A DNA stretch of 33,898 nt, taken from positions 1 through 33,898 of the forward strand of contig JBDRPL010000018.1 in the NCBI GenBank assembly GCA_043827025.1, read 5' to 3'. Source of the stretch: Candidatus Micrarchaeota archaeon. GTDB lineage: Archaea > Micrarchaeota > Micrarchaeia > Anstonellales > Bilamarchaeaceae. A model generated the notes under the pieces. That model searched no databases. It was not told the origin of the DNA and worked only from the letters and a program-made list of their open reading frames with translations. Shown in pieces: positions 3,394 to 33,898 of this stretch. How positions within the stretch are numbered: position 1 is the first letter of the stretch; every line of letters starts with the position of its first letter. The position numbers and the translations under genes were made by a program.

Positions 3394-3512
3394 TTGATTT
3401 GATGAACTGGGTCCATACCCCGCTGCTTGCAGCGAAATCCAGTTCATCAAAGCTGTGACCGAATGGGGCATACCCTATCAGCTTGCTGTGGGGTCCCTTC
3501 GGTCACATTGAT
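3394..3512. mobile_element. REP/MITE-like double-hairpin element bounded by TTGAT direct repeats
   Basis: Inverted repeats TTTGATGAACTGG/CCAGTTCATCAAA (3398-3410/3439-3451) and TGTGACCGAA/TTCGGTCACA (3454-3463/3498-3507), each enclosing an ATACCC...GCTTGC core; 3393-3424 is identical to 33818-33849. Confidence 0.7.
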
Positions 3513-17105: not shown

Positions 17106-17122
17106 AAATTGGGCCCGCCGAG
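17106..17122 (-). repeat. att-like duplicate of the tRNA-Ile 3' end
   Basis: AAATTGGGCCCGCCGAG identical to 19940-19956 (tRNA positions 61-73 plus 4 nt of trailer). Confidence 0.88.
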
Positions 17123-19935: not shown

Positions 19936-19943
19936 AGATAAAT

Positions 19944-20205
19944 TGGGCCCGCCGAGATACTCATTGTTCTCAGTTTTCCGTATGGTGTTTCGAAATCTGA
20001 AAACACTTTGAATTCCCGAAACTTTTGGACTGATTGTTTTTGATGAAACTTTTTCCAAAAAGTTTCCTCGGGACCTACGGCTGCCCTAGACCGTATTAGA
20101 AACTCATTTTTAGGAAGTTTTTGATGAAACTTTTTCCTAAAAAGTTTCTTGTATTAGACGGGGTCATATAAGACCGTCGCTCTAACCGGGCTGAGCTACG
20201 GGCCC
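19944..20205 (-). tRNA. tRNA-Ile(UAU) with three introns (37/38, 53/54, 59/60)
   Basis: Exons 20205-20167, 20082-20067, 20012-20007 and 19957-19944 join to GGGCCCG TA GCTC AGCCCGGTTA GAGC G ACGGT CT TAT AA GCCGT AGGTC CCGAG TTCAAAT CTCGG CGGGCCC A (75 nt, complete cloverleaf, no encoded CCA). Each junction lies in a BHB or BHB-like motif. Confidence 0.92.
20036..20148. repeat. Palindromic element shared by tRNA introns 1 and 2
   Basis: GTTTTTGATGAAACTTTTTCC(T)AAAAAGTTTC at 20036-20066 and 20117-20148. Confidence 0.9.
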
Positions 20206-33817: not shown

Positions 33818-33898
33818 TTTGATTTGATGAACTGGGTCCATACCCCGCTACTCCCGATTGTTGCGTAGCGCAACAATGGGCATCTTGTTGCATTGCAA
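33818..33898. mobile_element. Second copy of the REP/MITE-like element (probably truncated by the window end)
   Basis: 32 bp identical to 3393-3424, then a different hairpin ATTGTTGCG-TAG-CGCAACAAT. Confidence 0.65.

Follow-up and report, generated by a model that had tools for sequence, protein, structure and literature searches.

REP/REPIN repeats, which occur together with a RAYT transposase, are short hairpin units that form inverted doublets and are situated near stop codons. A second type of dispersed repeat, comprising BoxC, PIT and TMECO, is associated with intrastrand triplexes (Holder et al. 2015, PMC4666352; Hoyne et al. 2000 as cited there). PMC4666352 describes TMECO as a 9-base C-rich stem with G-rich arms and a second loop of 3, gives ITxF limits of 6-15 for the stem and 1-6 for the loops, reports that the TMECO triplex formed in vitro and was unseen in vivo, and holds that RNA is unable to form triplexes of the purine motif. 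Among archaeal introns, the closest cases are the multiple-intron tRNAs of ARMAN-2, which include a tRNA-Ile(UAU) with introns at 53/54 and 59/60, relaxed BHB motifs and a three-unit epsilon2 endonuclease (PMC3239211 and PMC3488258), and the transposed introns of the Thermoproteales (Fujishima et al. 2010, as cited in PMC4090602, PMC3239211 and 10.64898/2026.10.13.758758).

Here, a stretch of 33,898 nucleotides from a Candidatus Micrarchaeota archaeon (the window, from source genome G000) was examined. Its tRNA-Ile(UAU) gene contains two copies of a real, dispersed and structurally unusual repeat, which joins two known kinds and is sited exactly where introns begin. Such a short dispersed repeat may be one way in which new introns arrive in tiny archaea and, since the 30-base donor also occurs outside introns and orthologous sites with and without it are available, the origin of introns becomes testable. 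The coordinates of the features are collected in Table 1.

Table 1. Features of the tRNA-Ile(UAU) locus and related elements, in positions of the window
Feature	Position	Strand	Remarks
tRNA-Ile(UAU) gene, Micrarchaeota-type	19944..20205	-	three introns, 75-base mature cloverleaf; from profile alignment and fold of spliced product
Intron 1	20083..20166	-	position 37/38, 84 bases, strict BHB; central helix 4/4, outer 4/4, exon helix 3/3
Intron 2	20013..20066	-	position 53/54, 54 bases; repeat at head; central 4/4, outer 4/4, exon helix 1/3
Intron 3	19958..20006	-	position 59/60, 49 bases; central helix 4/4
Repeat copy 1 (in intron 1)	20118..20148	-	hairpin 20148-20126, linker 20125-20123, mirror A-tail 20122-20118
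Repeat copy 2 (head of intron 2)	20037..20066	-	hairpin 20066-20045, linker 20044-20042, mirror A-tail 20041-20037
Distal copy of loop complement and 3' arm	20018..20028	-	partner of the 5' arm of copy 2
Loop complement, purine arm and foot	20098..20114	-	long hairpin closed with copy 1 (MFE fold)
8-base word directly before copy 1	20151..20158	-	second occurrence 20093-20100; the former conserved family-wide in intron 1
MITE, IS200/IS605-type (element at 3398, 33823)	3399-3512 and 33824-33898		114 bases and longer forms

The tRNA-Ile(UAU) gene was missed by both ARAGORN and Rfam when run over the window. A motif-free profile alignment gave 21 of 21 stem pairs, and excision of 84, 54 and 49 bases at 37/38, 53/54 and 59/60, respectively, left a 75-base product that folds as a cloverleaf. 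The archaeal BHB arrangement of a 4-bp central helix and two 3-base bulges is present at all three junctions, with the exon-side helix missing from intron 2. Removal of the introns restores a canonical tRNA, and the source genome encodes a splicing endonuclease that matches PDB 4FZ2, which we take to be the structure of an ARMAN-2-type enzyme, along its whole length (E 1e-131). The code 4FZ2 appears two times in the paper on the ARMAN-2 structure, and the lineage is accordingly regarded as Micrarchaeota. On the basis of the BHB motifs, the three introns are predicted to be spliced out; together with the ARMAN-2-type endonuclease, these motifs fit the suggestion, made in an earlier note on this DNA, that the repeat would be rendered harmless by splicing. 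The tRNA, the 53/54 and 59/60 positions, the relaxed BHB and the three-unit endonuclease are all shared with ARMAN-2, for which, unlike the present gene, no repeat common to the introns is described in the accessible parts of PMC3239211 and PMC3488258.

The segments 20036-20066 and 20117-20148 are identical in 31 of 32 letters, differing by one indel, and the longest exact repeat within the gene is 21 bases, against a maximum of 11 in shuffles (n=300). The earlier note had reported the same palindromic element in two introns, as a 31/32-bp hairpin. The match itself stands, within a gene that has three introns. The palindromic part of the repeat, however, amounts to no more than 22-23 bases (a stem of 10 bp and a loop of 2-3 bases), the remainder being a 3-base linker and a tail of five A; the mirror tract, third of the tracts and the one that defines the repeat, had been overlooked. 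The positions given for the two copies were borne out, with copy 1 lying 18 bases inside the 37/38 intron and base 1 of copy 2 coinciding with base 1 of the 53/54 intron, as was the claim that the element pairs with distal intron sequence to build the splice helix, since the first bases of intron 2 pair with CCAAAAGTTT (20019-20028) to give the outer BHB helix. The segment that closes a long hairpin with copy 1 may be the remnant of an inverted second copy; complete inverted doublets are present at loci L399, L449, L463 and L718. That the two copies stem from a one-off duplication within the gene would accord with their spacing of 81 bases and single difference, and one copy may possibly have been made from the other. 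As the sole explanation, however, local duplication is refuted and hardly credible, given that a copy on contig C10 is as close to the window copies as they are to each other (31/32), that exact matches to the core of each exist in other genera, and that both copies are already present in a congener (G001). The earlier note had reserved this explanation for the case that no copies existed elsewhere; the genome-wide search that it proposed returned 12 strict copies in the source genome and hundreds elsewhere, and the repeat is therefore not a one-off local duplication.

In transcript sense, the unit opens with a 5-bp foot; a T/C tract then leads through a loop to the A/G tract with which it pairs, and the partner strand of the foot is followed by a 3-base linker and a purine tail. 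Of 149 Micrarchaeota copies, 106 have G-C and 38 have T-A as the outer foot pair, and units with other feet and the same layout number 96, compared with 9 in reversed DNA. The A-tail mirrors the purine arm of the hairpin and covaries with it. Indeed, when a C-G pair was fixed at stem position 2 and the tail base left free among A, G and T, this base was G in 28 of 29 matches (19 of 301 genomes). The 258 free positions of 129 distinct copies (two each) comprised 241 T-A:A, 14 C-G:G and 3 mispaired positions with no discordant triples, the copies being related, such that the counts overstate independence and the variants may stem from few events. Counted from the foot, G stands equally far out in the arm and in the tail, for distances 2 to 9; the relationship is therefore that of a mirror, as a fixed-period direct repeat cannot yield equal distances. 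A pyrimidine arm, purine arm and mirror purine tract follow one another in the 5'-3' order of class II, the opposite strand reading as the pyrimidine class, and the pattern is that of a putative class II intrastrand triplex like that of BoxC/PIT. The triplex would form in single-stranded DNA; as purine-motif triplexes are excluded from RNA according to PMC4666352, selection on DNA is indicated. The three-strand covariation is rare evolutionary evidence of selection on an intrastrand triplex, a matter left open for the BoxC/PIT repeats.

Comparison with BoxC/PIT/TMECO, as portrayed in PMC4666352, reveals the same tract order and a short turn, together with dispersal, patchy presence among relatives and inverted doublets with partial deletions. 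Unlike those repeats, the archaeal unit is A/T-rich rather than G/C-rich, has 4-11 triplets and an optional pseudoknot, separates arm from tail by a 5-bp mixed foot and 3-base linker, and lies at tRNA and rRNA splice sites, the word tRNA being absent from the main text of PMC4666352. The window copies have 5 triplets, their arm and tail are 8 bases apart, and they fall outside both the TMECO consensus and the ITxF limits. In 36 long-loop archaeal units the end of the loop pairs with bases past the tail (mean 2.92 versus 1.72, reached in 0 of 500 shuffles), which is predicted to be a pseudoknot helix; the signal was not found in short-loop units, bacteria or viruses. With regard to the strand that folds, G-T outnumber A-C mismatches by 12 to 6, false positives included. 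An apparent pairing of longer feet with longer linkers, suggested by visual inspection of a small number of units, did not hold up in two automated tests, and a resemblance to hammerhead, box C/D, attC or CRISPR elements was dropped because other subfamilies lack the letters concerned. A second, GC-rich three-tract unit is common to the left flank of the IS200 on C9 and to tRNA intron heads, among them that of a tRNA-Val intron (G000:C9 about 19995-20050, C25 57048-57150; L017).

Of the 151 genomes that represent the order, 43 contain the strict pattern, and a reversed-pattern control gave 0 matches. All 12 copies in the source genome were classified by reading as lying at tRNA genes, 8 as intron heads (one host, on C24, was parsed by eye), 1 in the interior of an intron and 3 in leaders. 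The leader copies (G000:C6 11820-11910, C25 36630-36770 and C32 53540-53650, one with a second, inverted unit) are bounded on both sides by direct repeats, 12-22 bases long, of the tRNA 5' end. Among the 46 inserts found in 35 tRNA genes of the source genome, a looser detector recognised the design in 14 (2 doubtful gene calls being dropped from the set; shuffle mean 0.005), leaving 32 inserts without a call. A worn copy heads a 45-base 16S rRNA insert that has a full BHB; reads aligned to this insert derive from other organisms.

Beyond the order, a scan of GTDB returned at least 124 loci and, among the 80 matches listed, several DPANN phyla, methanogens and bacteria were represented. Five bacterial genomes, picked for having a match, carry 27-79 copies each, often as inverted doublets, and 54 bacterial copies gave no tRNA call. 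Viral contigs yielded 119 loci, compared with 4 for a scrambled-linker control, and units are letter-identical across distant phyla and viruses. Viral scans for C-containing stems produced mostly chance matches and gave no support. Rfam 15 returned 0 matches in the window and none at gathering score in 20 loci, while matches in a further 20 loci were to the host tRNA or rRNA only. No description of such a repeat in archaeal introns was found in the literature covered, with most subscription papers and supplements outside that scope; it may be present among the supplementary intron sequences for ARMAN or Asgard genomes.

The position of the repeat relative to splice sites was assessed with 264 copies from archaeal or unlabelled loci, of which 86 lie in sense orientation in a called tRNA intron, 7 lie antisense in one, 23 are beside a tRNA and 148 are without a tRNA call, the latter including rRNA and missed genes. 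Eighty-two of the sense copies were assignable (4 omitted), with 13 at 15/16, 62 at 37/38, 5 at 53-54 and 2 at 59/60, and 70 of them start no more than 1 base from the 5' splice site. The central helix is complete (4/4) in 54 of these 82, compared with 22 of 492 shifted controls; at least three of four outer-helix pairs form in only 47, and a remnant of the distal arm is present in 35. A stricter setup, requiring strict BHB and ARAGORN, gave 39 of 147 against 12-16 in controls. Of the 7 antisense copies, 6 are located no more than 5 bases from the 3' end of the intron. At both intron ends, then, it is the foot that is turned towards the exon, and the outer helix is made by the two feet of a doublet. 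Nine copies follow tRNA 3' ends within 10 bases, and copies away from tRNAs are placed at stop codons in 11/66, 13/38 and 32/120 cases (controls 0-8), a signal not found among bacterial copies (2/44).

Within the source genome, intron heads are shared at 15/16, 37/38, 53/54 and in the T-loop, such that related sequence recurs across tRNA types and positions. Judged by eye with regard to similarity over whole introns (80% or more), the intron bodies appear to differ past the tail. As far as PMC4090602 and PMC3239211 describe the intron families of the Thermoproteales, the repeat differs from them in sharing only the first ~30 bases as opposed to whole introns, in not being confined to introns but present also in rRNA, bacteria and viral contigs, and in its own three-tract design. 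A form of the Thermoproteales process could nevertheless be envisaged, in which whole unit-headed introns move as RNA, the excised intron (with a 5'-OH at the hairpin foot) being joined to the 3' ends that the endonuclease leaves on tRNA, or to those of other RNAs, and then returned to the genome through a reverse transcriptase or gene conversion. The exactness of the foot end and variability of the other, with the splice-site, tRNA 3' end and stop-codon placements given above, would be expected of such a route, as would the G-T pairs in examples of the loop/post-tail helix, read on the transcribed strand, and the reverse transcriptase of the source genome, albeit split in two ORFs. RNA-level transposition is nonetheless considered unlikely, since reverse transcriptase was not found in 4 of 5 genomes (including one with 30 copies), copy numbers are high in bacteria and viral contigs in which no BHB introns were called, antisense copies are present at the 3' ends of introns and ahead of tRNA 5' ends, and the intron bodies and 4-base exon complements vary from site to site.

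Next, the comparison of orthologous tRNA-Ile introns proposed by the earlier note was carried out with 64 ortholog loci, one of which was a false match, leaving 63; most were found via the start of intron 1, and the set is consequently biased towards carrying it. Intron 1 is 24-48 bases long and without the repeat in most orthologs, and a unit was found within it in only 2 of 63, the source genome and the congener, in which the tail has been lost. From this comparison, intron 1 is evidently an old intron with the repeat inserted within it, and its unit a case of colonisation. The 53/54 intron was found in 10 of 63 orthologs from six genera (4 of 14 in the best-sampled genus). In eight of the ten a unit stands at the start, the feet being of at least four kinds (five cases were read by eye), and two are without one; with the genome picked through the repeat left out, seven of nine are unit-headed. 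A head-blind search for 53/54 introns gave 2 raw matches in 176 genomes, and a sparse tree of 14 neighbouring proteins, in which one label was wrong, did not discriminate between possible histories of gain. The 53/54 pattern would fit repeated founding, and would also be compatible with an old intron that has undergone head replacement and losses. Of the two roles proposed earlier for the hairpin, that of colonising BHB introns is thus upheld by intron 1, whereas that of seeding them would be consistent with intron 2. No repeat was called in intron 3 of the source genome, and the same intron is headed by a variant unit in the congener. Two further features of the orthologs are a TCTAATACA-like word (window 20150-20158, - strand) with variable flanks that begins at intron-1 base 9 in 59 of 60 (pattern-selected) family matches, and an extra variable-loop insert with a conserved 3' end in 7 of the 64 loci (L006, L012, L013 and others).

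The repeat could alternatively be a structural signal kept by the host at exon and gene edges, acting in folding, pausing or end protection, and spread among tRNA genes, without moving by itself, through gene conversion or through integrative elements that have intron-bearing tRNA halves as part of their attachment sites. The location of all 12 copies of the source genome at tRNA genes and the retention of the layout by many different foot sequences are in keeping with this, and the island at L718, in which a tRNA 3' half is duplicated along with its intron and the repeat therein, exemplifies a route proposed in PMC3293823. Such a signal is, however, rather improbable in view of the 108 of 151 genomes of the order and the majority of orthologous introns that are without the unit, the letter-identical units of distant phyla and viruses, the tandem arrays and doublets, and the lost tail in intron 1 of the congener.

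With respect to a mobilising enzyme, the repeat resembles REP/REPIN in being composed of high-copy short hairpin units, with tens of copies, inverted doublets, tandem arrays and placement near stop codons. It differs in its mirror tail, in having no conserved tetranucleotide outside the foot, and in that no flanked Y1 gene was found. Indeed, Y1 transposase was missing in 6 of 10 high-copy genomes, which are incomplete and in which divergent enzymes could be missed, the repeat was near only 1 of 19 Y1 loci, and no RAYT-like Y1 gene flanked by units was found in these incomplete genomes. DUF559 was detected in 6 of 251 and in 0 of 46 (incomplete) family genomes, and matches that were weak or unflanked were obtained in 2/5 and 1/5. 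Reverse transcriptase was found in 1 of 5 genomes, the one with 30 copies being among the incomplete genomes from which it was missing; the gene on contig C11 of the source genome (L736:1080-2184), split into two ORFs, is possibly DGR-like. Clustering of 1109 ORFs around units revealed no shared neighbouring protein, and none of the candidate genes looked for co-occurs with the unit. Direct repeats flank 3 of 12 copies in the source genome and 3 of 145 copies from relatives, against 1 and 6 in controls, and a general target-site duplication was rejected, as such repeats are unenriched in relatives.

The earlier note had also linked the repeat, through shared TTTGATGAA, to the element at 3398 and 33823. 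This element, an IS200/IS605-type MITE, has 9 starts in the source genome in short and long forms without duplication. TTGAT precedes 7 of the 9 starts and stands at 8 of 8 ends (target and right end), and a 21-base hairpin is common to the MITE and the IS200 on C6. The link is not supported: only a 9-mer with 89 occurrences in the genome is in common, with divergence immediately beyond it, the fixed target pentamer and fixed right end of the MITE are lacking in the intron repeat, and TTGAT, the target and right end there, is an internal linker here. Mobilisation of the unit by the IS200/IS605 transposase that serves this TTGAT-targeting MITE would be in line with the presence of TTGAT beside a hairpin in both, with the 3 Y1 genes of the source genome, and with the GC-rich three-tract unit, a different unit, common to the C9 IS200 flank and the tRNA-Val intron head. 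It is very improbable, given the frequency of the 9-mer, the replacement of the TTGAT linker in other subfamilies, the lack of a conserved target word before the foot and the high-copy genomes missing Y1.

The preferred reading, to which a probability of roughly 55% is assigned, is that of a non-autonomous repeat acting at the DNA level, whose single-stranded fold would be read by an enzyme and whose insertions would survive in structural RNA genes on completing a BHB. A non-coding, REP/REPIN-like unit with a class II triplex layout in single-stranded DNA would insert at the borders of transcribed units with its foot leading, in many cases as a head-to-head doublet that subsequently collapses. 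In tRNA and rRNA genes the two feet would pair to give the outer helix of the BHB motif, the insert would then be excised by a broad-specificity endonuclease, and copies would be retained either at the head of an intron, as in intron 2, or as passengers within an old one, as in intron 1. Of this scheme, the dispersal of the unit, the covariation of its three strands, its siting at splice sites, the BHB pairing and its patchy occurrence are observed. Beyond these, the unit would move as DNA and may found introns; the four exon-pairing bases are accounted for by none of the explanations. A more far-reaching version of the preferred reading, which is put forward tentatively, would have a cross-domain, selfish, triplex-folding DNA repeat found new BHB introns, with the doublet giving the outer helix and four matching bases sufficing at a tRNA or rRNA loop, repeatedly by different subfamilies at the same positions.

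Several further observations were made on units and their surroundings. Tandem arrays of long-loop units stand right after tRNA 3' ends at four loci of one genome (G019, L719-L722), and at G000:C30 39151-38972 and L031 another hairpin element seems to be inserted, nested, between the foot and tail of a unit. At L717:1476-4040 (G045), where an AbiE-type gene pair is enclosed by Mrr and Fic genes, an identical 17-base flank plus unit stands on either side of the pair, and these units are possible attachment sites. Identical units around an AbiE-type cassette at L718 were rejected as recombination sites, that locus being the island that duplicates a tRNA half and its intron. In the window, a 17-base duplicate of the tRNA-Ile 3' end (17106-17122 and 19940-19956) encloses 2.8 kb with an AlbA_2/RecG-C gene and a DpnI-family nuclease, a stretch that is probably an island integrated at the tRNA-Ile(UAU) gene.
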